NCBI GenBank assembly: GCA_965205675.1
Contig: OZ242186.1
Span: forward strand, 544,001-608,000
Length of the DNA: 64,000 nucleotides
Direction: 5' to 3'
Source of the DNA: Nitrosopumilus sp.
GTDB taxonomy: Archaea; Thermoproteota; Nitrososphaeria; Nitrososphaerales; Nitrosopumilaceae
The notes under the pieces are model-generated. The model saw only the letters and a program-made list of their open reading frames with translations. It was not told where the DNA came from and ran no database searches. Shown here piece by piece: positions 4,064 through 61,149 of this stretch (position 1 is the first letter of the stretch; the number at the start of each line of letters is the position of its first letter). The translations under genes and the position numbers were made by a program.

Positions 4064-4095
4064 GATTATATGAAATGATTTTGATATATGAATTA

Positions 4096-20383: not shown

Positions 20384-21703
20384 ATGACAAAATTTCAAGA
20401 TTTAGGATTAAACGACAAAGTACTGAAAGGTATTTCGGAGCAAGGTTTTGAAGAAGCGTTCCCAATACAAGAAGCAGTTATTCCCGTGTTACTTTCAGGT
20501 AGGGATGTTGTAGGACAAGCACATACAGGTTCTGGAAAAACAGCAGCATTTGCATTATCTATGTTACAAGAAATTCAACCAAAACAAGGAATTCAAGGAT
20601 TAATCATGGCTCCAACAAGAGAACTTGCCATGCAAATTAGCGATGAGATCAAAAAATTTGGAAAACATACTGGGATTAGAATTGCAACCGTTTATGGGGG
20701 ACAAGGAATGGGAATACAATTAGATGCACTACACAGAGGTGTAGAAATTGTTGTAGCTACTCCTGGAAGATTGATAGATCATCTCAAAAGAGGATCAATA
20801 GACCTAAGAGATATTTCCCACATTGTTCTTGATGAAGCAGACACCATGTTAGATATGGGATTTGTCGATGACATTCAATTTATTTTAGATTTAGCACCCG
20901 AAGACAGAGTAATGTCATTGTTTTCAGCAACAATGCCAACTGAAATTTTAAGACTGTCTGAAGATTATCTTACTAATCCAAAACAATTCTTGTTAGATGC
21001 AGATGATCTAAGTGGGGAAGGGATAGATCAATCATATTTGGTAATTAAGGATAGAGACAAATTCAAGTATCTGATTGATTTTATCAAACAAACAAAAAGA
21101 CAATCAATTGTTTTCTGTTCTACAAAATACAGAACTAGAGATGTTGCAAAGTTTTTGCATCAAGAAAAATTCAATGCAGTAGCTATAGAAGGAGACATGT
21201 CCCAACATAGAAGGGAGCAATCCATGGGTAAATTTAGAAGTGGTAAAGCAGATATTCTTGTAGCAACAGATGTGGCATCCAGAGGAATTGATGTTCCAAG
21301 AGTAGAATTAGTGGTGAATTACGATGTTCCAAACCAAGAGATGGCATATTTTCACAGAATTGGAAGAACCGCAAGAGCAGGTGCAAAAGGTAAAGCAGTA
21401 ACATTTGTTTCATATTCATCTGTAGGAGATTGGAATCTAATCAAAAGACAAATCAAAGTACCACTTACAGACTTAAATCAAGAAATGGGAATTCAAATTT
21501 CAATCCCAGATCCTCTAAAAAGGCAAACTCCATCAAGAAGATATGGTGGACAATCAAGATCTAATTATTCCAGAGGAGGGCGTTCTGGAGGATATGGCGG
21601 ATCACATAGAGGAGGAAATCCTAGAGACGATCGAGGGGGAAGAAGAAGAACTAGTAATAGAGACGGAAATAAAAATAGCTACGGCGGACGTAGTAGATGG
21701 TAA
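20384..21703 (+). CDS. DEAD-box RNA helicase with RGG-rich tail
   Basis: TGSGKT, PTRELA, DEAD, SAT, HRIGRTAR. Confidence 0.96.
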   Translation: MTKFQDLGLNDKVLKGISEQGFEEAFPIQEAVIPVLLSGRDVVGQAHTGSGKTAAFALSMLQEIQPKQGIQGLIMAPTRELAMQISDEIKKFGKHTGIRIATVYGGQGMGIQLDALHRGVEIVVATPGRLIDHLKRGSIDLRDISHIVLDEADTMLDMGFVDDIQFILDLAPEDRVMSLFSATMPTEILRLSEDYLTNPKQFLLDADDLSGEGIDQSYLVIKDRDKFKYLIDFIKQTKRQSIVFCSTKYRTRDVAKFLHQEKFNAVAIEGDMSQHRREQSMGKFRSGKADILVATDVASRGIDVPRVELVVNYDVPNQEMAYFHRIGRTARAGAKGKAVTFVSYSSVGDWNLIKRQIKVPLTDLNQEMGIQISIPDPLKRQTPSRRYGGQSRSNYSRGGRSGGYGGSHRGGNPRDDRGGRRRTSNRDGNKNSYGGRSRW

Positions 21704-21753
21704 GACTGTAAAACTTAAAGACTTGAACTTTATGATTAATTTAAGGTAAACAA

Positions 21754-21987
21754 ATGCACAAAGGATTCATTTTATTAAATTGTGATCTAGGGGCAGAAGA
21801 ATACATTGTAGATAAGTTAAAACAAATGGAGAATATTAGTAATGCATATCTTACTTTTGGTGCATATGATGTAATTGCAGAAATTCAAACAGAAAACCAA
21901 GAAGGATTTGAAAAAGTAATTGCAATGATTAGAAAACTTTCTAGGGTGGTAAGTACAATGACCCTAAATGTCATAAATCCAGAATAA
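21754..21987 (+). CDS. Lrp/AsnC ligand-binding domain protein
   Basis: FILLNC..G.E, TFGAYDVIAEI, IRKL..V.STMTL. Confidence 0.88.
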   Translation: MHKGFILLNCDLGAEEYIVDKLKQMENISNAYLTFGAYDVIAEIQTENQEGFEKVIAMIRKLSRVVSTMTLNVINPE

Positions 21988-22141
21988 TAATTCAAGATAG
22001 TGATTTCAGACGATCAATTCATCATTATGATCTTAAAAAATTAAATAGAATAAAGAAATGGCTCAGATCAAAGCCCTCTCATCATGAGTTGACTTTCAAA
22101 CAAAACGCTTCTTAACGTTGAGCCTTTATTTTTCATAACTA

Positions 22142-23262
22142 TAACCATAACCATATGTGCCAAAATCAGCTAGGAAATTAGATGGTACTTGCATTCGTGC
22201 CAAAACTCACAAGAAGACTAGAACTGCCAACAAACACATTACCTTACCTACCTGAAAGAAAATATTTGATGTTTGTAGGATTGGATGGTCACAAAAACTC
22301 TGTATAGGTTGCAGCAATAGATAATATTGGCAAATTATTATTTAACAAAAAGATTTCCAGTGATTTTTTTGCTATTGATAAAATCGCGGCCGAAATTCCA
22401 AAGAATGCAAAATATGTCCTAGAGTCAATTATCTGTCTGGTATGGTTTGTACAGACACATGACAGGCAAATTACATCGTGATGTTGTATTATCAAATCCA
22501 TACAACACAAAGATAATTGCTGCATCCCTCAAAAAGACCGATAACATTGATGTGTATCAACTTGCAAATCTGTTACGAGGAGGGTATTGCAGAATTATTT
22601 GTATCAGATCATACTATTGTGTAATACAGACAGCTTGTAAGACATCGACACAAGATTATACGCGTTATTGTAAAGATGAAGAATTCCATACATGGCATTA
22701 CACTACAGAAGGGAATCCATATTAAAGCGACACCCTTCTTCTCAACACATACGAGCCACTTGGAAATCTGAAAAGTTACAGAGTAGACTCGTATCTGCAA
22801 AGCATAGGATTTCACAAAAAAGAGGTTGCAAAAATAGATTCCATGATACGCCGTATGGTGATTGGAAATCATGATGTGCATATTTTGACATCAATGCTTG
22901 ATGTTGGACCCTATACTGCATTGACCATATTTTCAGAGATTGCAGACATTGAGAGATTTGCTGATTCCCACAAACTGTGCGCATATGCAGGAGTTGTTCC
23001 ATCAGGCGTGAAATTCTGCAGATACAATACACCATGGCAGTATAACAAAACGAGGAAGCATGACATTGAGATAGGTTCTAACAGAATGCATTCACATTCA
23101 TGCAATCCATGCTAAAAACAACGACATTACAAAATTTTATAATCGCATAAAAAAGAAGAGAGGGACATCAAAGGCTGCCGTAGCTTGTGCATCAAAGATA
23201 CTGCGAATCATATACTGGATGTTAAAGGAGAGAAGAGAGTTTGTGGAACATTATAGTTAGGA
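22142..23262 (+). mobile_element. IS110-family element, pseudogenised (copy A)
   Basis: FVGLDGHKNSV*VAA, KTDNID, GPYTAL..SEIADIERF..KLCAYAGVVPS; multiple stops and frameshifts; homologous to 26784-27888. Confidence 0.9.
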
Positions 23263-23371
23263 CTGCTTGTTCTATATTGATAATAAGGATCTTGTTTAGA
23301 ATTGATACAAAAGCTTACAGTTCCTATTTGGCTATTATTTCATATTATTATACTAAGATAAAGTAATCTGA

Positions 23372-23794
23372 TTATACTAGATGGTTAGAATTTGGAATTA
23401 CTTTGTAGATTTTTACAATATATTCTCCTTCAAAAATATTTACAAACTCTCCTGTATTGGAATCTAGGTTTCTTACTCTGAATTTGTATTCGTAAGATCC
23501 ATCTCCTTTTACATCTACTTGGGCAAAGTGTACTGGGTCTTCTCCTTTGTAAAATTGGATGACTACTGGATATCTTTCAGCATATTCTGATGCCTCTCCT
23601 CTTACAGTTCCCCATGGGAGTGTATTTTCTTTAGGTATTGTCATTACAGTTGTTGTTTTTTCCAAACTAATCTCCTCATCAATTGGAGTAACTGCAACTT
23701 GATTTGATTCTGCAACAATATCTTCTGGTACCATCATCATTCCTACTACTGCCATAATTGATACTACTAATAGAACACTTGATTTTGTATGCAT
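23372..23794 (-). CDS. Hypothetical exported protein
   Basis: Signal peptide; beta-rich domain (DGSYEYKFRV..GEY.VK). Confidence 0.75.
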   Translation of the reverse strand: MHTKSSVLLVVSIMAVVGMMMVPEDIVAESNQVAVTPIDEEISLEKTTTVMTIPKENTLPWGTVRGEASEYAERYPVVIQFYKGEDPVHFAQVDVKGDGSYEYKFRVRNLDSNTGEFVNIFEGEYIVKIYKVIPNSNHLV

Positions 23795-24400
23795 ATATCA
23801 TTACTTTCCAAAGCTACTTAAAAAATTTGTTACTAATTTGTTCTATTTTCATTCCTAGTTATGATGATTCTTCTTCTAAATCACAACATATTTTGTATAT
23901 CCGTTGATCTTTGGAATTTTTCAATATTTCTTTCCTGTTTTGATCGCATCTCCATATTTCTCGTCAAATCTGGCTTTCATGAATTGATTATGCTTTTCAT
24001 TAATTTTAATCAGGCTTTATTTTCTCTTTGAATTATTTTTCTTTTGATTACATATGTATAATTCTCCCTCAAAATTAATCCTTTGAAATCCAATCCAAAA
24101 TTTTCTCTTTCTACCTGTCATATTTTTTATGATTTTTTACAAAATCTTTGATGGTGTTCGATATTGAATCAGATTCAGATTTTTCCTATTTTTGAGAATT
24201 ATTTGGAGTAGGATTTTTCTAGATATTTCTCCCTCAAATTTTCTTTGAAATACGTCCATAGGGTTGGTTGGTTCTTCAGATTTTAATGGTCACTATGGTC
24301 TTACTCTCTTTGAAATTTGTATAATTGAGATGTTTTTTTATATTATTTTGTCTATTTTGAATATTTTTTTTCAGTTAGTATTTAATGATGTATATCTCTA

Positions 24401-25105
24401 ATGGATAGCATCATGGATGACTCTGCTGATGTTGTAGATGAAGTTAATGCATTACTCAAGCTTGGCGTGGGTGACTCGTATAGATTAGAGCATATCAAAC
24501 AGGCTTTTGTTCAAAACAAGATTATTTGGGTTACTGATGAGAATTATCTAAAACGCCTGAGAGAAAAATATCTTGTAAAACAAACCTCTGATATAGAATC
24601 TGATGGTGAAATTGTTTTTGAAAATGAACCTGAAGAAAAAGAAACCATCCATTGCTGGAAATGTGGTAAAAAAGGTCCGTTAAATGCTAATTTCTGTATG
24701 ACTTGTGGTACTTCAATATTTGAAATTGATGCCCCTTCTCATCTTATATCTAAATCAAATAGTTCTGGTCTTGTAAAGTCTATTCCATTAAAAATCCCCA
24801 TACTTGTAGGTATTCCGATTTTAATTTTAATAATTATTGGTGTAGGATATACTCAAGGTTATCTTGATAATGTTCTTGAGCGTTCATCCTCTAATGTAGT
24901 TCCCATTCCGACAGTTGTTGTAAATGATGGTGTTTCTTCTAGTAATGCTGATTCCCCATGTGGTCCTGGAACTGTGTTTGATTCTGTAACTAATTCTTGT
25001 GTCTTAGGAACTGCATCTACGTCTACTTCTAGTAATGCTGATTCCCCATGTGGTCTTGGAACTGTGTTTGATTCTGTAACTAATTCTTGTGTTTTAGATA
25101 ATTAA
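24401..25105 (+). CDS. Zinc-ribbon membrane protein with two extracellular Cys repeats
   Basis: CWKCG..NFCMTCG, TM helix, 2x SSNADSPCG(P/L)GTVFDSVTNSCVL. Confidence 0.8.
   Translation: MDSIMDDSADVVDEVNALLKLGVGDSYRLEHIKQAFVQNKIIWVTDENYLKRLREKYLVKQTSDIESDGEIVFENEPEEKETIHCWKCGKKGPLNANFCMTCGTSIFEIDAPSHLISKSNSSGLVKSIPLKIPILVGIPILILIIIGVGYTQGYLDNVLERSSSNVVPIPTVVVNDGVSSSNADSPCGPGTVFDSVTNSCVLGTASTSTSSNADSPCGLGTVFDSVTNSCVLDN
24936..25097 (+). repeat. Near-perfect ~72 bp direct repeat, period 90 bp, intragenic
   Basis: cttctagtaatgctgattccccatgtggtc(c/t)tggaactgtgtttgattctgtaactaattcttgtgt occurs twice. Confidence 0.9.
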
Positions 25106-25192
25106 CAATTATTAAAACAAATTCCACAGATTGGAGTGGACTCCTGTTTTTAGTACCACTTTTTGCATAATCTTACATACAGTCTGATTCAT

Positions 25193-26014
25193 TTATGTTT
25201 TCATCTCCCACAACTCCATAAACTCATCAGGTATAAGATATCCCAATGCAGAATGAATCCTGGAACCATTGTAATCGATTCGTGCTTTCTCTAGAGCAAC
25301 TTCGGCTTCCTGATAGTTTGCAAACTCGTACCTCCACAAGTATTCCTTCTTGAGTGTCTTGTGGAATGATTCGACATGTCCGTTTTGTTCTGGCGTGTGG
25401 TGCCAGATGAATTCGTGTCTTATTCCAAGTAGAACAACTGCTTTTCTGAAATCTCGGCTGTTGTATTGCGAACCGTTGTCAGTTCTGAGAATCAGTTTTG
25501 TGCAATCAGGCTTTGCAGTAGCTACTGCATTAATGATGCTGTCAATTGCAGTGCTCTTTGGAGCTGCCACATCAAATGAATGCCAAATCCATTTCCTGCT
25601 AAATGCATCAATCACGTTAAAGCAGTAGCACCATCTGTCAACCCCACACCAGACATATGTGATGTCTGTCTGCCACAACTGGTTTGGTGCATCAGGCTTG
25701 AATAATGTTCTGGCAGATTTGATGATGTCATTTTTGGTCTTTTTAGGCTCAATCCAGCCCAATTTGTGAAATATTCTTCTGATTTGTTTTCTGTTTACAG
25801 GCTTGTTCAGTTCCCTTGAGACTTGGGATGCCATGCGTCTGGTTCCATAAGTTGGCCTTTGTTTTCCAATCTTTTGAACTACATCAGTTACTGCAGGATC
25901 TGTCTGAATCCTTCTTGGTGACTTTGAGTAATACCATTTGGATTTTGAGACTCCAATTAATAACAATGACTTGTTCAAACTGATGTGTTTGTTCAGTTGA
26001 TTCACTGCAGTCAT
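25193..26014 (-). CDS. IS3-family transposase OrfB (DDE/rve)
   Basis: YGTRR, WQTDITY, RTDNGSQY, QNGHVESFHKTLKKE, RIHSALGY. Confidence 0.95.
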   Translation of the reverse strand: MTAVNQLNKHISLNKSLLLIGVSKSKWYYSKSPRRIQTDPAVTDVVQKIGKQRPTYGTRRMASQVSRELNKPVNRKQIRRIFHKLGWIEPKKTKNDIIKSARTLFKPDAPNQLWQTDITYVWCGVDRWCYCFNVIDAFSRKWIWHSFDVAAPKSTAIDSIINAVATAKPDCTKLILRTDNGSQYNSRDFRKAVVLLGIRHEFIWHHTPEQNGHVESFHKTLKKEYLWRYEFANYQEAEVALEKARIDYNGSRIHSALGYLIPDEFMELWEMKT

Positions 26015-26301
26015 CTTTTCTGGTTCTCCAACGTTTTTTTTAAAATGTCATTGGCAATTGTGATCTCGCCGATTAGTTTTTTGAGGGAATCATTTTCCTT
26101 TTGCAGATTCTTGCAGACATCTCCGTTTGGTGTGCCATTTAATGATGCCTTGCCACCTTCTACAAATCGTTCCCTCCATTGGTAGAATGTCTGTGGATGA
26201 ATATTGTACTTTCTGCACAACTCTGCAGTTGCAATGTTTGTGTTTAGTGACTCTAAAACCACTCTTGACTTTTCTGCTGATGTGAATTTGCTCTTTACCA
26301 T
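26011..26301 (-). CDS. IS3-family transposase OrfA (HTH)
   Basis: FTSAEKSRVV..AELCRKYNIHPQTFYQWR, leucine-zipper LQKENDSLKKLIGE. Confidence 0.93.
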   Translation of the reverse strand: MVKSKFTSAEKSRVVLESLNTNIATAELCRKYNIHPQTFYQWRERFVEGGKASLNGTPNGDVCKNLQKENDSLKKLIGEITIANDILKKTLENQKR

Positions 26302-26373
26302 GAGGGTAAGCCTCCCAAGTTATCTGAAAAGTGTATGTATGCTACCGGTCCTACTCTAGAGGGGACCAGACCA

Positions 26374-26593
26374 CATCCATTATTGCTACTTGAAGAAACT
26401 TCTTGTGCAGGTCAATACCCACAAACATGCCTTTCTTTGGATTTTTTCTAATCTGTTTGTTTGTAATCTTTTTTGGAGCCGAGTATTTACGAACCTTGGA
26501 ACTAGATTCATTTTTTATGCTATCTGATTTCCTTGCTTTCTTATTCACATATCCATGTGAATCCCTTTTAACTATTGTCGGTATTTTTGCCAT
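26374..26593 (-). pseudogene. 5' stub of a further IS110 transposase (copy C), cut by the IS3 element
   Basis: Basic N-terminal extension then MFVGIDLHKKFLQVAIMD, ending exactly at the IS3 end. Confidence 0.85.
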
Positions 26594-26629
26594 ATTAATT
26601 ACAGCTTACGCTAATACACTCATACTTTC

Positions 26630-26770
26630 AATCACAGATGAAACCAGACACATATCCATTCGGGGTTCTCCCCCAGTACCATCTTCATCCATTTATTAGG
26701 TGAAACCGCGGTTATAGTTTCGAGGTATTATGCATCCTCAATGTGAAAACGCGGCCAAACTCCTAACTGT
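26630..26770 (-). ncRNA. Candidate IS110 bridge/seek-type guide RNA
   Basis: Two consecutive stem-loops with large internal loops; G-U pairs favour the minus strand; lies directly 3' of an IS110 transposase. Confidence 0.55.
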
Positions 26771-26783
26771 AATGTTTTACAAA

Positions 26784-27873
26784 TTATTGATGACATTGAA
26801 TAAATTCTCTCCTCTCTTTTAGCATCCAATAAATGACACGCAATAACTTTGATGCAGCAGCAACTGCTGCCTTTGAGGTCCCTCTCTTTTTCTTAATGCG
26901 ATTATAAAATTTTGTAATGTCGCTATCTAGTGCGTATCTAACATGTGCATGAATTGCCTCCACTAGCAACCATCTTAGCATGGTGCTTCCTCTCTTTGTA
27001 ATTCTTCCGTGATGTATTGTATCTGCAGAATTTCTCACCGATGGAACAATCCCTGCATATGCACATAACTTGTGAGAATTTGAAAATCTACTAATCTCTG
27101 CAATTTCTGAGAATATGCTCAATGCAGTGTATGGTCCAACTCCAGGTGTGGATATCAAAATACACACATCAGGATTATCATTTACCATGCGACGTATCAT
27201 GGAATCTATCTTTGCAACCTCCTTTTTGTGAAATTTTATGCTTTGTAGGTACGAATCTATTCTACAACTCTCCAATTTTCCAAGTGCACGTATGTGTTCT
27301 GAGGAAAATGGTGTTGCTTTGATATGGATTCCCTCCTGTAGTGTAATACCATGTATGGAATTCTTCATCTTTACAATGATGCGCACAATCTTGTGTCGAT
27401 GTCTTACAAGCTGTCTGTATTGCACAATTGTGTGATCTGGCACAAATGATTCTGCAATACCCTCCTCGTAGCAAATTTGCAAGATGGTACGCATCAATTT
27501 TATCAGTCTTTTTGAGTGATGATGCTATTATCTTTGTGTTGTATGGATTAGATAGTATAACATCAAGATGTAATTTGTCTGTCATGTGTCTATAAAGGCC
27601 ATACCCGACAGATGATGACTCTAAAACATATTTTGCGTTCTTTGGAATTTTAGATGTAATTTTGCTAATAGCAGAAAAATCACTGGAAATCTTTTTGTTA
27701 AATAATAATTTGCCAATCTCATCTACTGCTGCCACCTGTACAGAGTTCTTGTGAACATCCAATCCTACAAACATCAAATACTTTTTTTCAGGAAGGGTAG
27801 TGTGTTTGTTTGCATTTCTTACTTTCTTGATACGAATGCAAGTACCTTCTAATTTCCTAGATGATTTTGGCAC
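26784..27873 (-). mobile_element. IS110-family transposase (copy B), split into two overlapping frames by a single frameshift near 27455
   Basis: DEDD RuvC-like: VGLDVHK, VLES, KTDKIDA; Tnp domain: PGVGP, AYAGIVPSVRNSA, ITKRGS..LR..LVEA, VAAASKL. Confidence 0.92.
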
Positions 27874-28018
27874 ATATGGTTATGGTTACCAGTACCTCTC
27901 TTGTCAATAGTTTTCATTTATCTATTAATTATGACTAATTGCTATTAGTTGTAATTAGTCAGCATGGTTCCACTTCCTCCTGCAAGATGCGGTGGGCTGT
28001 GCTGACTTTAAGAAATAA

Positions 28019-28243
28019 TCAAGGTTTCAAATAACATTGCAGAAAATCATCATACACCAAATCATCAACTGAACCAAACCCCATTGCCTCATAGTCACTA
28101 GGCCAGACACAGGGTCCTGCTGCAATACCGTAAATCAAAATGAAAATTAACCATTTGAAATAATACAATAACAGAATAGATACAATGATCAAAAAAGAAA
28201 AAAAGAGGATGCGTCTAGTAGTTATCATGCCAGGGTGTGCCAT
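28019..28243 (-). CDS. Small membrane protein
   Basis: 74 aa, hydrophobic N-half, two Cys. Confidence 0.5.
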   Translation of the reverse strand: MAHPGMITTRRILFFSFLIIVSILLLYYFKWLIFILIYGIAAGPCVWPSDYEAMGFGSVDDLVYDDFLQCYLKP

Positions 28244-28340
28244 TTTTTATATAGATTTAACACATCATCATTGTAAATAGATACATTGTTACGTTTGAAT
28301 CGATTTAATTTTTCAAATATCGAACTTTCCAAAACTGATC

Positions 28341-28493
28341 TCATCTTTTCATTGGTTTTACCAATCGTGGCTTGTTCCAGTACGGACTGTTGCATCCCCT
28401 GCAATTCTGCGGGATCTCCTTCGGAGTTGTCCATTTATGACCGCATCTCTCACACTTGTGATTCCATACTGTTATTTTCGTCTTCGTATTCAT
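28341..28493 (-). CDS. Small zinc-ribbon protein of mobile-element type (50 aa, absent from ORF track)
   Basis: MNTKTKITVWNHKCERCGHKW..PQNCRGCNSPYWNKPR. Confidence 0.75.
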   Translation of the reverse strand: MNTKTKITVWNHKCERCGHKWTTPKEIPQNCRGCNSPYWNKPRLVKPMKR

Positions 28494-28513
28494 GTTTTTT
28501 GATATAGTAGACG

Positions 28514-28670
28514 TCTTGCGTAATTACAAACAAAATCTTATCTTTCATTGAATTTAATTTCAAATAATCTCTGACATTCTTTAGAATTACATCAAACTAC
28601 TGTCTAGTCACTCCGGTGTATGCGAGAAATACCTTTTGGTTTTTTTGAGAGTTGCTTGTGTGTTGACATG
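28514..28670 (-). repeat. ~155 bp dispersed repeat, copy 1 (inverted copy at 31105-31259); probable IS5/ISL2-like transposase 5' remnant
   Basis: Shares tcttgcgtaattaca(a/g)acaaaatcttatctttcattgaatttaatttcaaataat; translates to LSKNQKVFLAYTGVTRQ*FDVIL. Confidence 0.7.
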
Positions 28671-28759
28671 AAATGAAGTAGATTATTCTTAGCTTTGGAT
28701 CTTGTTGTGAAGGAATCTGTGCTATATGGTAAAATATGTCTAATTGTGCAAGAGGTCTA

Positions 28760-29083
28760 TTAATTAGGGAAATTTGCATAAATATACAAAAATGATAAAC
28801 CTGTTATAACTAACAATACAACAAAACATCCAATAATAGACAAGCTAACCTTTACCCACATATGCATATGAGTTCGGAATCTCTCAGTTGCAACAAATAT
28901 CATAATGAGAGGTATGATAACTAACAATGCCCCTACAGGTAGTACAAACACACTCATAGGATAAAACACATCATCAGCCACCAGTGGTTCATGATCTATG
29001 AGGCTATCTTGAATGAAAATAAACAAAAATATAAAATAAAGAGACAAGAATATCAGAAAAACAGTTATTGTTGTAATTTTCAA
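28760..29083 (-). CDS. Hypothetical membrane protein (3 TM)
   Basis: 107 aa hydrophobic ORF. Confidence 0.6.
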   Translation of the reverse strand: MKITTITVFLIFLSLYFIFLFIFIQDSLIDHEPLVADDVFYPMSVFVLPVGALLVIIPLIMIFVATERFRTHMHMWVKVSLSIIGCFVVLLVITGLSFLYIYANFPN

Positions 29084-31389: not shown

Positions 31390-32059
31390 CTATCACAATT
31401 CTATAAAATGAAAATTACTGAAACCACATATTAAATTTCTATTTTAGTGGGTTCTCCCATACGAAATTGTCTCTTATCCTACTGTGGACTCTTCTTAGTG
31501 TGCTTTGCTGAATCAGGACATCTGTGATTTGTCTTGCATTCTCTTATACTTTCTCTGCGTTAGTTCATGATTTTGTGTACGATACTTTTCAGAGTTTATT
31601 GGCATGAATCAAATTATTTCAAGCATTTGTCTTGCAGCTGCTACCTCTGCTTTTTGTTTTCCTCTTCTTTTTGCAATTCTGCTGTAAAATGATCCATTCT
31701 TGGATCAAATTGTATCGTAGTATTTGCAGCCTCTATCATTGCATTACGCAACCATGTAGAACCTCTTTTTGTTATACTTCCTCCTCTATGTATATCTGCA
31801 CTATCTCTATGTGATGGTGTGCACGTCCTGCATATGAGACTAATTTTTCTGCAGTTGATTCACATACTGCTTGCATGTCTTTACCATATGTCTTTTTGAT
31901 GTGTCTGATAAAACCCACTATTCCACTTGTTGTATTATCAAAACTTGACTGTTCTAGTTTCTTTCTGGATTCATTTTTTATTGTTGCAACACATTTTATT
32001 TTGTAAACGTCTAGCTCATTTACACAAACATGACTAGATGCTGTCATTTTATAATTCAA
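31390..32059 (-). mobile_element. IS110-family remnant (copy D) with internal deletion, directly downstream of tRNA-Val
   Basis: LDVYK..C.ATI..AVCESTA fused to EKLVSYAG, then ITKRGSTWLRNAMIEAA..KAEVAAARQMLEII; CDS remnant 31513-32059 plus non-coding tail. Confidence 0.82.
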
Positions 32060-58343: not shown

Positions 58344-61149
58344 GTTAAAAATTCGTGGAGCAAGACATCATAATCTAAAAAATTTAGATATCGACATTCC
58401 AAAAAATAAATTAATTGTTATTAGTGGATTATCTGGATCTGGTAAATCCACATTGGCATTTGATACAATATATGCAGAAGGTCAGAGACGTTACGTTGAA
58501 TCTCTTTCTGCTTATGCTCGTCAATTTTTAGAGATGATGGATAAACCTGATGTTGATTCTATCGAAGGTTTATCTCCTGCAATTTCAATCCAACAAAAAA
58601 CCACCAACAAAAATCCTCGTTCTACTGTGGGTACTACTACTGAAATTTATGATTACATGCGATTATTATTTGCTAGAATTGGAATTCCTTATTGTACTAA
58701 CTGTGGGCGTAAAGTTTCCACTCAGTCTATTGAACGAATATGTGATTCTGTACTCAAAGATTTTTCAGGGAAAAAAATCCTCATTTTATCTCCTATTGTT
58801 CAGAGAAAAAAAGGAACATATGAAAAATTATTTGAACAAATCAAAAAGGATGGGTATTCTAGAATACGCCTAAATGGTGAAATTTTGAGCCTAGATGATG
58901 AGATTTCTCCCCTTGATAGGCAAAAATGGCATAATATTGAGATTGTAGTTGATAGGATCACAACTGAAAAATCCGAAAGATCTCGACTCTTTGAAGCTGT
59001 GCAAACTGCAATCAAAGCATCCAAAGGAGATGTTATGATTGCTACTGAAAAATCCGAAAAAATTTTCTCACAAAATAATGCTTGTCCATATTGTGGATTG
59101 ACTGTAGGTGATTTAGAGCCTAGATCCTTTTCATTCAATTCTCCCTTTGGAATGTGTAAAACATGTAATGGTTTAGGGGTAAAGCTAGAATTTGATGCTG
59201 ATTTAGTAGTACCTGACAAAACAAAATCTATTTTGGATGGTGCTATTGTTCCATGGAGTGGTAGATTTTCTGCTTTTAGACGTCAGGCATTAAGAGCAGT
59301 TGGGAAAAAATTTGGTTTTGATTTAATGACTCCGTTTGATAAGATTAAATCAAAACATCTTCAAATAATTTTACATGGTACAGATGCCTTGATTGATTTT
59401 ACATACCGTTCAAAATCTGGTGACTCTTCTTGGAAATCTACTAATACATTTGAAGGCGTGTTAGTTAATTTACAGCGTACTTTTATGGAAACTGATTCTG
59501 AATCTAAAAGAGAATGGTTAAAGCAATTCATGAGAGATACTCCTTGTAATACATGTGATGGCAAAAAACTAAAACCAGAGTCACTTGCAGTTAAAATCCA
59601 TGAAAAAGGAATAATGGATGTTTGTGATATGTCTATTGATAATTGTTATGATTTTTTTTCTTCATTGAAATTAACTACTAATGAACAATACATTGCAAGG
59701 GATGTTTTAAAAGAAATTAAAGAACGTCTTGAATTTTTAATGAATGTTGGACTAAATTATCTTACACTAAATAGACTAAGTTCAACATTGTCTGGTGGAG
59801 AATCTCAAAGAATTCGACTGGCAACTCAGATTGGCTCTAATCTAACTGGTGTCTTGTATGTTCTTGATGAACCTACTATTGGATTGCATCAACGAGACAA
59901 CACTCGACTCATTAAAACGCTAAATAAGCTACGAAATCTTGGGAATACTGTCATAGTTGTAGAGCATGACGAAGAGGTTATCCTAAATTCGGATTGGATG
60001 GTGGATTTAGGACCTGGTGCGGGTGTTCATGGAGGAAATGTTGTTTTTGAAGGTACTGTGAATCAAATTCTTAAAGATACTAAATCTGTAACCGGAACAT
60101 ATCTGAAAAATAATTCTTTGATTAATTTAGATGACAAAATTCGTAAACGTTCTGGTTCTTTAACTATCAAGAAAGCTTCTGAAAATAATCTCAAAAATAT
60201 TGATGTTGAAATTCCTTTAGGTCTTTTTGTTTCTATAACTGGCGTATCTGGCTCTGGAAAGTCTACTTTGATTAACGATATTTTATTAAAATCATTAGAA
60301 AATCACTTTTACAAATCTAATGTTCGTCCTGGAATGCATAAGGATGTAATTGGATTAGAAAATATAGATAAGGTAATAGCAATTGATCAATCTCCTATTG
60401 GCAGAACTCCTCGCTCAAATCCTGCTACATATATTGGTGCTTTTACTCCTATTAGAGAACTTTATGCAAATACTGCATTATCAAAAGAACGTGGATATGC
60501 ACCTGGACAGTTTTCATTTAATGTAGCTGATGGCAGATGTTTTGCATGTGATGGTGATGGTGTTAAACAAATTGAAATGCAGTTTTTATCTGATGTTTAT
60601 GTAAAATGTGATGAGTGTAAAGGAAAGAGATACAATACTCAAACTTTATCTGTATTGTACAAGGGAAAAAATATTTCTGATATTTTAGATATGACTGTAT
60701 ATGAAGCACTAAATTTCTTTGAGAATGTTCCTGCAATTCAACGTAAATTACAAACAGTCTATGATGTTGGTTTAGGTTATATCAAACTCGGTCAATCATC
60801 TACCACTCTTTCTGGGGGTGAAGCTCAAAGAGTAAAACTTGCCTCTGAATTATCAAAACGAGGCACTGGAAAAACTCTATACATATTAGATGAACCTACT
60901 ACAGGCTTGCATTTTGCTGATGTTCAAAAATTACTTGATGTTCTTAATCGACTGGTAAATTTAGGAAATACTGTAGTTGTAATTGAGCATAATATGGATG
61001 TGATTAAAAATTCTGATTGGTTAATTGATCTTGGTCCTGAAGGTGGGGATGAAGGAGGCAAAGTGGTATCTATTGGAACTCCTAAAGATATAGCAAAAGC
61101 TCCTGGAAGTTATACCGGAAAATATCTGAAAAAATTACTGAAAAAATGA
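58330..61149 (+). CDS. uvrA: Excinuclease ABC subunit A
   Basis: Two ABC modules (GLSGSGKS, LSGGE, LDEPT) and Zn fingers. Confidence 0.97.
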   Translation: MIENKLKIRGARHHNLKNLDIDIPKNKLIVISGLSGSGKSTLAFDTIYAEGQRRYVESLSAYARQFLEMMDKPDVDSIEGLSPAISIQQKTTNKNPRSTVGTTTEIYDYMRLLFARIGIPYCTNCGRKVSTQSIERICDSVLKDFSGKKILILSPIVQRKKGTYEKLFEQIKKDGYSRIRLNGEILSLDDEISPLDRQKWHNIEIVVDRITTEKSERSRLFEAVQTAIKASKGDVMIATEKSEKIFSQNNACPYCGLTVGDLEPRSFSFNSPFGMCKTCNGLGVKLEFDADLVVPDKTKSILDGAIVPWSGRFSAFRRQALRAVGKKFGFDLMTPFDKIKSKHLQIILHGTDALIDFTYRSKSGDSSWKSTNTFEGVLVNLQRTFMETDSESKREWLKQFMRDTPCNTCDGKKLKPESLAVKIHEKGIMDVCDMSIDNCYDFFSSLKLTTNEQYIARDVLKEIKERLEFLMNVGLNYLTLNRLSSTLSGGESQRIRLATQIGSNLTGVLYVLDEPTIGLHQRDNTRLIKTLNKLRNLGNTVIVVEHDEEVILNSDWMVDLGPGAGVHGGNVVFEGTVNQILKDTKSVTGTYLKNNSLINLDDKIRKRSGSLTIKKASENNLKNIDVEIPLGLFVSITGVSGSGKSTLINDILLKSLENHFYKSNVRPGMHKDVIGLENIDKVIAIDQSPIGRTPRSNPATYIGAFTPIRELYANTALSKERGYAPGQFSFNVADGRCFACDGDGVKQIEMQFLSDVYVKCDECKGKRYNTQTLSVLYKGKNISDILDMTVYEALNFFENVPAIQRKLQTVYDVGLGYIKLGQSSTTLSGGEAQRVKLASELSKRGTGKTLYILDEPTTGLHFADVQKLLDVLNRLVNLGNTVVVIEHNMDVIKNSDWLIDLGPEGGDEGGKVVSIGTPKDIAKAPGSYTGKYLKKLLKK

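Follow-up and report, generated by a model that had tools for sequence, protein, structure and literature searches.

Organization of the locus

The window, that is, the whole stretch of 64,000 nt analysed here, carries on its minus strand an IS110-family insertion sequence with an IS1111-like layout, element B, whose transposase gene is followed by a non-coding right end (Table 1). Behind this right end stands the left end of another IS110 element, C. A preliminary description, made from the letters of this DNA, had placed about 190 nt of the region between two IS110 copies, B and C. Both parts of that view had to be revised: the 190 nt belong to the right end of B, whose last base is 26553, and what had been called copy C is the left end of another IS110 type, which starts at 26550 and is cut at 26373. 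The cutting element is IS3-like, with rve and HTH_Tnp_1 domains, and is no part of the B system. Copy A, a decayed B-like element, has lost its RNA region, of which the first bases of helix P1 are left. At least four IS110 types are present in the genome, and dozens of related elements were seen in sister genomes.

Table 1. Features of element B and its surroundings, in window positions
Feature	Position	Strand	Remark
IS110-family element B, IS1111-like layout	26553..27881	minus	1329 bp
AT core copies flanking B	27883-27882 and 26552-26551		one per side
Left target flank of window B	27884..27896	minus	GGTACTGG then TAACC
B transposase gene	26784..27873	minus	GTG start in left end
B gene pieces, two frames	27873..27262 and 27497..26784	minus	split at codons LRGG / (Y)IAESF
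B 3' non-coding end: proposed bridge/seek RNA gene and right end	26553..26783	minus
Covariance-model match, five helices P1-P5	26626..26770	minus
SL1, putative target-binding loop	26696..26766	minus	5' strand UUUUCACAUU, 3' strand GAAACUAUAAC
SL2, putative donor-side loop	26634..26692	minus	5' strand AGAUGGUACU; 3' strand has AUGGAU
SL3 hairpin AGC-GUAA-GCU, downstream of SL2	26603..26612	minus	read from anchored listing
A/T-rich box	26566..26571	minus	putative archaeal TATA box of a junction promoter
C left end, different IS110 type, right-hand target of B	26374..26550	minus	80-codon piece
IS3-like element cutting copy C	25133..26373	minus	orfA 26301..26011, orfB 26014..25193
Copy A, decayed B-like	22142..23262	plus	82% identity to B, several frame breaks

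The boundaries of B were set from 17 left ends and nine right ends in the genome, a single contig of 2.01 Mb. This genome holds nine copies of the 190-nt block, all 100% identical, and four more partial matches (64 nt at 89%). A B-type transposase gene precedes the block in all nine full copies, and the left end of another IS110 type adjoins each of them, namely C in eight cases and D in one (b5). Where C stands alone, it starts with ATATGTG (window 26552), with unrelated DNA and no block upstream, in eight of the nine listed copies; the ninth, c9, is diverged. Since the block is always found behind B and is absent before the alignable copies of C alone, it is the right end of B and not a leader of C. 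The left boundary is fixed by two sets of sites. Sites b8 (B and C) and c3 (C alone) have a common left flank and differ by exactly B plus AT, and in the chimera b9 the left flank agrees with the element's own guide at 10/10 positions, ending in TAAC-T-AT directly before AACCATATGTG. The b8/c3 flank and the b9 register also ruled out a left end starting with ATGTGCC and a target of the form TAACYATAACC.

With these boundaries, AT is found at both junctions of B, and its left flanks end in TAAC-Y. The string TAACY occurs at 16 of the 17 left ends, and at b9 too once a coordinate offset of one base is allowed; TAAC and the next pyrimidine are all that the left flank of the window copy shares with the other copies. 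The element thus has the traits of the IS110 family, in which a short core is repeated at the junctions and insertion is sequence-specific, without long terminal inverted repeats. The copies of B are 98-100% alike, and none of the 36 variable columns in the alignment of eight of them falls in the last 231 nt. The A/T-rich box of the right end lies at a fixed distance from the terminus and was kept in 36 distinct right ends, including those that are rich in G+C.

The transposase gene and its reading frame

The left end reaches only 8-14 nt ahead of the GTG start codon, and the right end extends to about 230 nt past the stop codon. In B, the first of the two gene pieces carries the DEDD_Tnp_IS110 domain (PF01548) and the second the Transposase_20 domain (PF02371); for type D, the corresponding E values were 2.7e-28 and 2.7e-23. 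The NCBIfam model NF033542, "IS110 family RNA-guided transposase", was matched at 229-250 bits (cut-off 140), and the structures matched in the PDB were the IS621 and ISCro4 transposases (8wt6 and 9t56; E 4e-12 and 6.5e-12). The closest relatives of the transposases come from Nitrosopumilus and Nitrosopumilaceae assemblies.

The genes of types C (L014:411-1526) and D (L013:1643-2752) are intact, 371 and 369 codons long, and their GTG lies among the very first bases of the left end. In the assembly, every B copy that was examined can be read through only with a +1 shift, always at the same GGG, so B may be non-autonomous in this genome. The frame break may also be an assembly error or a strain difference. 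An error is suggested by an in-frame version at 27457-27460 in contigs of the public runs X1, X2 and X4 and in part of X3, as well as by an intact B-like homologue of 362-365 aa in a sister genome (L045:1175-2263). The contigs of runs X1-X4 are broken at the repeat and showed no joints, circle junction or empty site; among these runs, the unique left flank of B was covered by X4 only. A look-up of sequencing runs for the stretch listed no RNA run.

Conservation of an RNA fold

The minimum free energy fold of 26594-26790 on the minus strand gave two stem-loops with internal loops, as drawn in the preliminary description. As a single sequence, the region folds no better than chance on the minus strand (z = -1.0, with 35/200 shuffles folding as well), and likewise on the plus strand (z = -0.24); the argument for a structure is therefore drawn only from comparison with relatives. 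A search of 21500-29000 against Rfam with E up to 10 matched no insertion-sequence or bridge RNA family. Three matches below threshold concerned unrelated RNA families of eukaryotes; one of these, at 26752-26953, reaches over the region's 5' edge.

The 3' ends of B, C, D and three further variants in the genome are homologous and have a common layout. MAFFT misplaced SL1 of B and shifted D by one column, so the covariance model R1 was built from four sequences that aligned well and a structure with five helices written by hand, and the remaining sequences were aligned with Infernal. In the window, the model matched 26770..26626 with 55.4 bits (E 1e-10), the region of the two stem-loops. Relatives were fetched for 80 of the 370 seen. 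In 45 sources, 40 matches were obtained at E up to 0.02, of which 39 lie directly 3' of a transposase gene, and the fortieth is a partial solo copy. The proteins of the matched elements are 38-98% identical to that of C.

In the set of 39 elements, 96.0% of the cells pair and 17 of the 26 pairs have changes on both sides, values that are biased in favour of the structure by an alignment fitted to the model; none of 500 shuffles reached any of the measures, and pairing in slid controls was 40-51%. Another 17 model matches that were fetched, 13 from other genomes of the family and four from this genome, were aligned with the same bias and gave 94.0% pairing with changes on both sides in 21/26 pairs; here the shuffles reached four measures in 0/500 cases and the fifth in 2/500. 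RNAalifold alone, run on the same alignment, recovered P1, P2, P3 and P5. It picked a different pairing for the base of SL2, where compensatory changes in L056 fit the hand-written version better. In the relatives' alignments, the frequent G-U pairs fit only the strand of the transposase. The TAGCG...GC motif of SL3 was kept in nearly all relatives. Judged from these alignments, the fold is conserved with compensatory changes.

SL1 follows the DNA on both sides of the element

The stems are conserved, and nothing else in the region varies as much as the two internal-loop strands of SL1. The 5' strand of B (UUUUCACAUU) is complementary to the right-side sequence AT-ATGTGAA, and the 3' strand (GAAACUAUAAC) matches, in the same sense, left targets with AACTATAAC at their end. 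Such relations recur across the elements: the reverse complement of the 5' strand reproduces what follows the right end (CACAT-G/A-G) and the AT core, and the 3' strand reads like the left flank, matching the sequence ahead of TAAC-Y-AT. On the right, exact runs of 10 nt, counting the AT core, were found in L016, L026, L044 and L093 (8-10 nt after the core), runs of 9 nt in L049 and both L081 elements (one at 4073, the other B-like), and a run of 8 nt in L092. On the left, the run is 9 nt in L016, L085, L056, L062, L064, L067, L084 and also L100, and 10 nt in L015.

The longest exact runs were summed and compared with sums obtained after the flanks were permuted among the elements. For the right flank, 36 distinct pairs gave 220 against a permuted value of 126.7 ± 6.9 (0/20000); for the left flank without the shared TAAC, 30 pairs gave 102 against 67.5 ± 4.6 (0/20000). 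With one pair per distinct guide, the sums were 166 against 96.4 on the right (n=28) and 71 against 43.8 on the left (n=19), each with 0/5000. The counts cover neither the partial solo copy L044:523 and identical pairs nor elements with an unrecognised right end (L015, L085) or left end. In 13 of the 36 right-flank pairs the run is only 2-4 nt long; such elements may have decayed, or their ends may have been misread. For the window copy of B, the left flank agrees in TAAC only, with 3 nt elsewhere, and the right-flank run is 7 nt, followed by a mismatch. The guide segment complementary to the top strand precedes, in the 5' to 3' direction, the one complementary to the bottom strand. The covariation with both flanks supports SL1 as the predicted target-binding loop.

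The sequence strings quoted in the preliminary description are all present in the window, but most of the junction matches that it built on them are coincidental. The string GGTACTGG beside the left end of B is indeed there, as the reverse complement of 27889-27896; it flanks one of the 17 B-type left ends, and its resemblance to a loop strand is a coincidence. At the left junction of copy A (22133-22141), AACTATAAC is a real 9-nt same-sense match to the 3' strand of SL1 and a true left-target match; the adjacent TTTTCAT is unaccounted for. The 6/7 match of TATCCAT to TAACCAT does not enter the reading given here. The same-sense orientation, which had been noted there as a difficulty, is the correct geometry for a left-target guide in B's family.

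The target of B can be read from these guides. Types C and D have AT-ATGTGAA as their left terminus, and the guide of B runs into it for 7 nt here and for 9 nt in the B-like element of L081. As the right guide of B matches the left terminus of C and D, B lands directly in front of them, which is the arrangement of the nine full copies here and also of those in genomes L045 and L081. On the left side, flanks ending in AACTATAAC were found at copy A, where the flank matches the left-target guide of B, and at b2; in the remaining copies the agreement is limited to TAAC. By its predicted guides, B is programmed for TAAC-Y-AT-ATGTGAA, the left junction of its siblings C and D. The opposite order of events, with C inserting behind B, was rejected: the left-target guide of C mismatches the right end of B, while the right-target guide of B matches the left end of C.

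SL2 follows the ends of the element

The loop roles in the preliminary description were mostly wrong: SL1 is the loop that follows the target, and SL2, to which flanking DNA had been matched, follows the element's own ends. Its 3' strand AUGGAU equals CATGG of the right end plus the AT core. When the right end CAT(G/A)GAT was compared with AT-G/A-GAT of the 3' strand, the G/A state was equal in 35 of 37 elements, with one discordant and one unreadable; the agreement extends to the B-like element L045:2277, which has a D-like SL2 together with a D-like right end.

The 5' strand AGAUGGUACU repeats, in the same sense, a left-end motif, which in the window reads AGAAGGTACT (about 27850-27841) with one mismatch. 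Across elements, this strand copies a motif of 7-10 nt that lies 24-37 nt inside the left end, and the variant letters change together. A test made without knowledge of the motif gave 99 for the same-sense relation of the 5' strand to the left end, against 81.2 ± 3.5, and 0/3000 permutations reached this value. The antisense relation stayed at chance level (reached by 423/3000 permutations), and SL2 yielded no guide antisense to the left end where it begins beside the core. The same-sense relation is not predicted by the IS621 model. The string AGATGGTACT, whose presence inside copy A had been recorded as a caution, is present there, and it proved to be the left-end motif, which is conserved and is copied in every clade by the 5' strand of SL2. 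These comparisons indicate that SL2 tracks the element's own ends.

Comparison with known systems

The bridge RNAs of the IS110 family and the 3' seekRNAs of IS1111-type elements were described in 2024. The elements studied here are called IS1111-like from their layout. As in the IS1111 group, the left end is short, a long non-coding region lies downstream of the gene, and each element type has its own target. The use of the ends of other mobile elements as a target is also known from some IS1111 members; IS4321 and IS5075 reportedly target the inverted repeats of the Tn21 family. Both the present elements and the IS1111 seekRNA elements treated in the relevant passages of Siddiquee et al. 2024 (ISEc11, ISPa11 and ISKpn4; PMC11187229) have a DEDD transposase with PF01548 and PF02371. 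The SL1 guides also come in the same order: in those passages, complementarity to the top strand is on the 5' segment and complementarity to the bottom strand on the 3' one (PMC11187229). Subterminal inverted repeats, which measure 7-17 bp in IS1111, are 8 bp long in C and D (ATGTGAAT on the left; ATTCACAT on the right, two bases away from the terminus); that of B is weaker, consisting of ATGTG/CACAT only, six bases in from the left end.

Several features set these elements apart from IS1111. The host is an archaeon (Nitrosopumilaceae), the transposase is lengthened by a lysine-rich stretch of about 40 aa whose GTG start lies right at the end of the element, the AT core is preceded by a conserved TAAC-Y, and there is a second internal loop with a 5' strand same-sense to an internal left-end motif. 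In addition, the IS1111 motif G-L-x-P-x4-S/T-G corresponds here to G-(I/V)-V-P-S-V-R-N-S-A, in which SA replaces SG/TG.

IS621 and ISCro4, in the parts of Durrant et al. 2024 (PMC11208160) that deal with their bridge RNAs, share with the present elements two internal loops for target and donor, one loop-strand guide that is same-sense and another that is antisense, a core dinucleotide within the right-target guide, and homologous transposases. Unlike IS621, where the RNA is in the left end, 5' of the gene, the region studied here is 3' of the gene. The order of the SL1 guides is reversed, given that the 5' strand of each IS621 loop pairs with the bottom strand according to those parts (PMC11208160), and no guide antisense to the start of the left end was found in SL2.

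According to the pertinent section of a review (PMC13604230), a junction promoter drives the guide RNA in IS110/IS1111 elements. The right-end A/T box at a fixed distance and a left end that begins with a start codon resemble the junction promoters of circular and tandem insertion sequences, so a right-end/AT/left-end junction would assemble a promoter-gene unit. In contrast to known junction promoters, this one would be of the archaeal TATA type and give a nearly leaderless transcript.

Archaeal IS110 recombinases have already been catalogued, as stated in part of a preprint (bioRxiv 10.1101/2024.06.21.599552). A literature search on the RNA of thaumarchaeal IS110 elements found no paper; the supplementary tables of Durrant and Siddiquee, which were outside the search, may include archaeal or related entries. 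The passages treated of a paper on Nitrosopumilus (PMC13343696) make no mention of the RNA of IS110 elements. The system is one of a known kind, in a lineage for which this search gave no earlier description.

Interpretation and significance

We consider it probable, at roughly 0.85, that 26783..26553 on the minus strand is the right non-coding end of an IS1111-like IS110 element and encodes a predicted bridge or seek RNA. The central proposal of the preliminary description, an archaeal IS110-family recombinase with a 3'-encoded guide RNA, is borne out by the NF033542 protein, the compensatory fold and the covariation of SL1 with the flanks; on these sequence comparisons, a guide RNA is very probably encoded by the non-coding end of B. 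The RNA would be transcribed at a length of roughly 150-230 nt, with SL1 as target-binding loop and SL2 as donor-side loop. Bound to this RNA, the DEDD transposase would join a circular right-end/AT/left-end junction to the target at the AT core.

Other explanations of the block were weighed against this reading. It lies directly upstream of the reading frame of C on the same strand, and an 80-aa ORF starting with the ATG at 26593 continues into C, so it could be regarded as a 5' non-coding leader of C that holds a bridge RNA of C, as in the IS110 group proper. This is refuted by the context of the copies and by the RNA region of C itself: the eight alignable copies of C alone begin at their own terminus (c9 being the diverged ninth), the block travels with the B transposase in 9/9 cases, even at b5, where the left end of D follows, and C has a homologous RNA region 3' of its own gene, an intact copy of the element being found at L014:411-1526. 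The chance that the block is a leader of C is negligible. A role for the conserved structure in protein binding or at transcript ends (as terminator, stabiliser or transposase-binding site), with no guide function and with the target chosen by the protein, is also very improbable, though less so. Stems and apical loops, like the A/T box and the GUCCG and TAGCG motifs, are indeed conserved in the way of protein- or polymerase-binding sites. However, the loop strands of SL1 vary more than any other part of the region and change with outside DNA on both sides, in the strand geometry of seekRNAs, which a protein-only model does not predict.

A third explanation accepts a real bridge RNA gene of the family but takes it to be dead here, with the B copies as relics, or moved in trans by the transposases of C or D, and with the window copy idle. 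The +1 break common to all examined B copies, the decay of copy A and of several fragments, and the chimera b9, which shows B genes and C-like RNAs to be exchangeable, are in line with it. Against it, the near identity of the copies and their invariant RNA region suggest recent activity, the in-frame sequence exists in contigs of runs X1, X2 and X4, and the B-like gene of the sister genome is intact. We regard it as possible, although the balance is clearly on the other side. Within the preferred reading of a functional guide RNA gene, the observations on both loops may be combined further. The donor loop may read the right end beside the core as well as the bottom strand 24-37 bp inside the left end, at a pairing site that would fall within the first codons of the transposase gene. 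A circle junction with its TATA-like box and start codon would then switch the transposase on, and B, homing to its siblings and parked before C or D, would form a permanent junction mimic that activates or hijacks these relatives. This combined scheme is speculative and, on balance, unlikely to hold in all its parts. If the donor-loop relation is functional, however, the known geometries of bridge recombination would be widened.

RNA-guided IS110/IS1111 recombinases are under development as programmable genome-writing tools. To our knowledge, only bacterial IS110/IS1111 members have so far been studied at the bench. The present set adds closely related archaeal elements from mesophilic marine ammonia oxidisers, in which natural variation already displays a guide code for both target halves. 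It also adds an RNA family that is absent from Rfam and a case of one insertion sequence apparently programmed for the junction of its relatives. Some Nitrosopumilus genomes carry a very high load of insertion sequences, as reported in passages of PMC13343696, and the system may help to explain this load. Across the sample of the family, matches to the model were found in 14 of 151 genomes and seven of 27 genera, and some genomes held at least 20 copies.

The chimeric element and the B transposase

One element of the genome, b9, is a chimera: its left end and its transposase (97% identical) are of B type, whereas its 3' RNA region is C-like. The C-like guides of b9 agree with its flanks (10/10 on the left side), and the 5' strand of SL2, the donor-side loop of the proposed RNA, mismatches the element's own B-type left-end motif.

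In this assembly, all B-type transposase genes require a +1 shift at one common run of G. The run has one G fewer, and the gene is in frame, both in an intact homologue (L045:1175-2263) and in contigs of the public sequencing runs X1, X2, and X4. The break could come from an error made systematically in the assembly, from a difference between strains, or from programmed frameshifting.

Coordinates of features in the window and of the chimeric element
Feature	Position	Strand	Remark
IS3-like element, orfA/orfB	window 25133-26373		truncates C-type IS110 copy
B-C tandem junction	window 26575-26540
A/T-rich box in B right end	window 26566-26571		conserved in right ends of 36 related elements
Small hairpin AGC-GUAA-GCU, GNRA-like loop	window 26603-26612		between SL2 and right end
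Frame break of B transposase	window 27455-27470	minus	codons LRGG/YIAESF
IS110-type transposase C-terminal domain, further fragment	window 31603-31820		tblastn matches, genome 575603-575820
Chimeric element b9	genome 754452-755691 (L015)		single copy

The 3' region and the element ends

A third hairpin, which the covariance model of the SL1 and SL2 helices leaves out, is conserved across the family and reads TAGCGAAAGC in most relatives. Closer to the end of the element, the A/T-rich box is set back from the right end by about 14 nt, and among the 36 related elements it is kept in G+C-rich ones as well. In types B, C, and D, the longest transposase ORF begins at a GTG that sits in the left end, among its first bases. 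A junction of right end, AT, and left end, whether in a circle or in the B-C tandem, could form a TATA promoter of the archaeal kind, whose transcript would be nearly leaderless.

Insertion-sequence load

The Nitrosopumilus genome of the window is rich in insertion sequences. At least four IS110 types occur together (B, C, and D, with variants at 61022, 78081, 505713, 1517004, and 1720512), and more than 30 IS110 copies or fragments are found in 2.0 Mb, alongside about 20 near-identical copies (98-99%) of the IS3-like element. A remark in PMC13343696 ascribes the highest IS content among archaea to a Nitrosopumilus genome of a different assembly; the IS110 and IS3-like load observed here is consistent with that remark. 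In the window, the C-type IS110 copy is truncated by the IS3-like element, whose orfA and orfB meet at 26011-26014 in a probable frameshift overlap.
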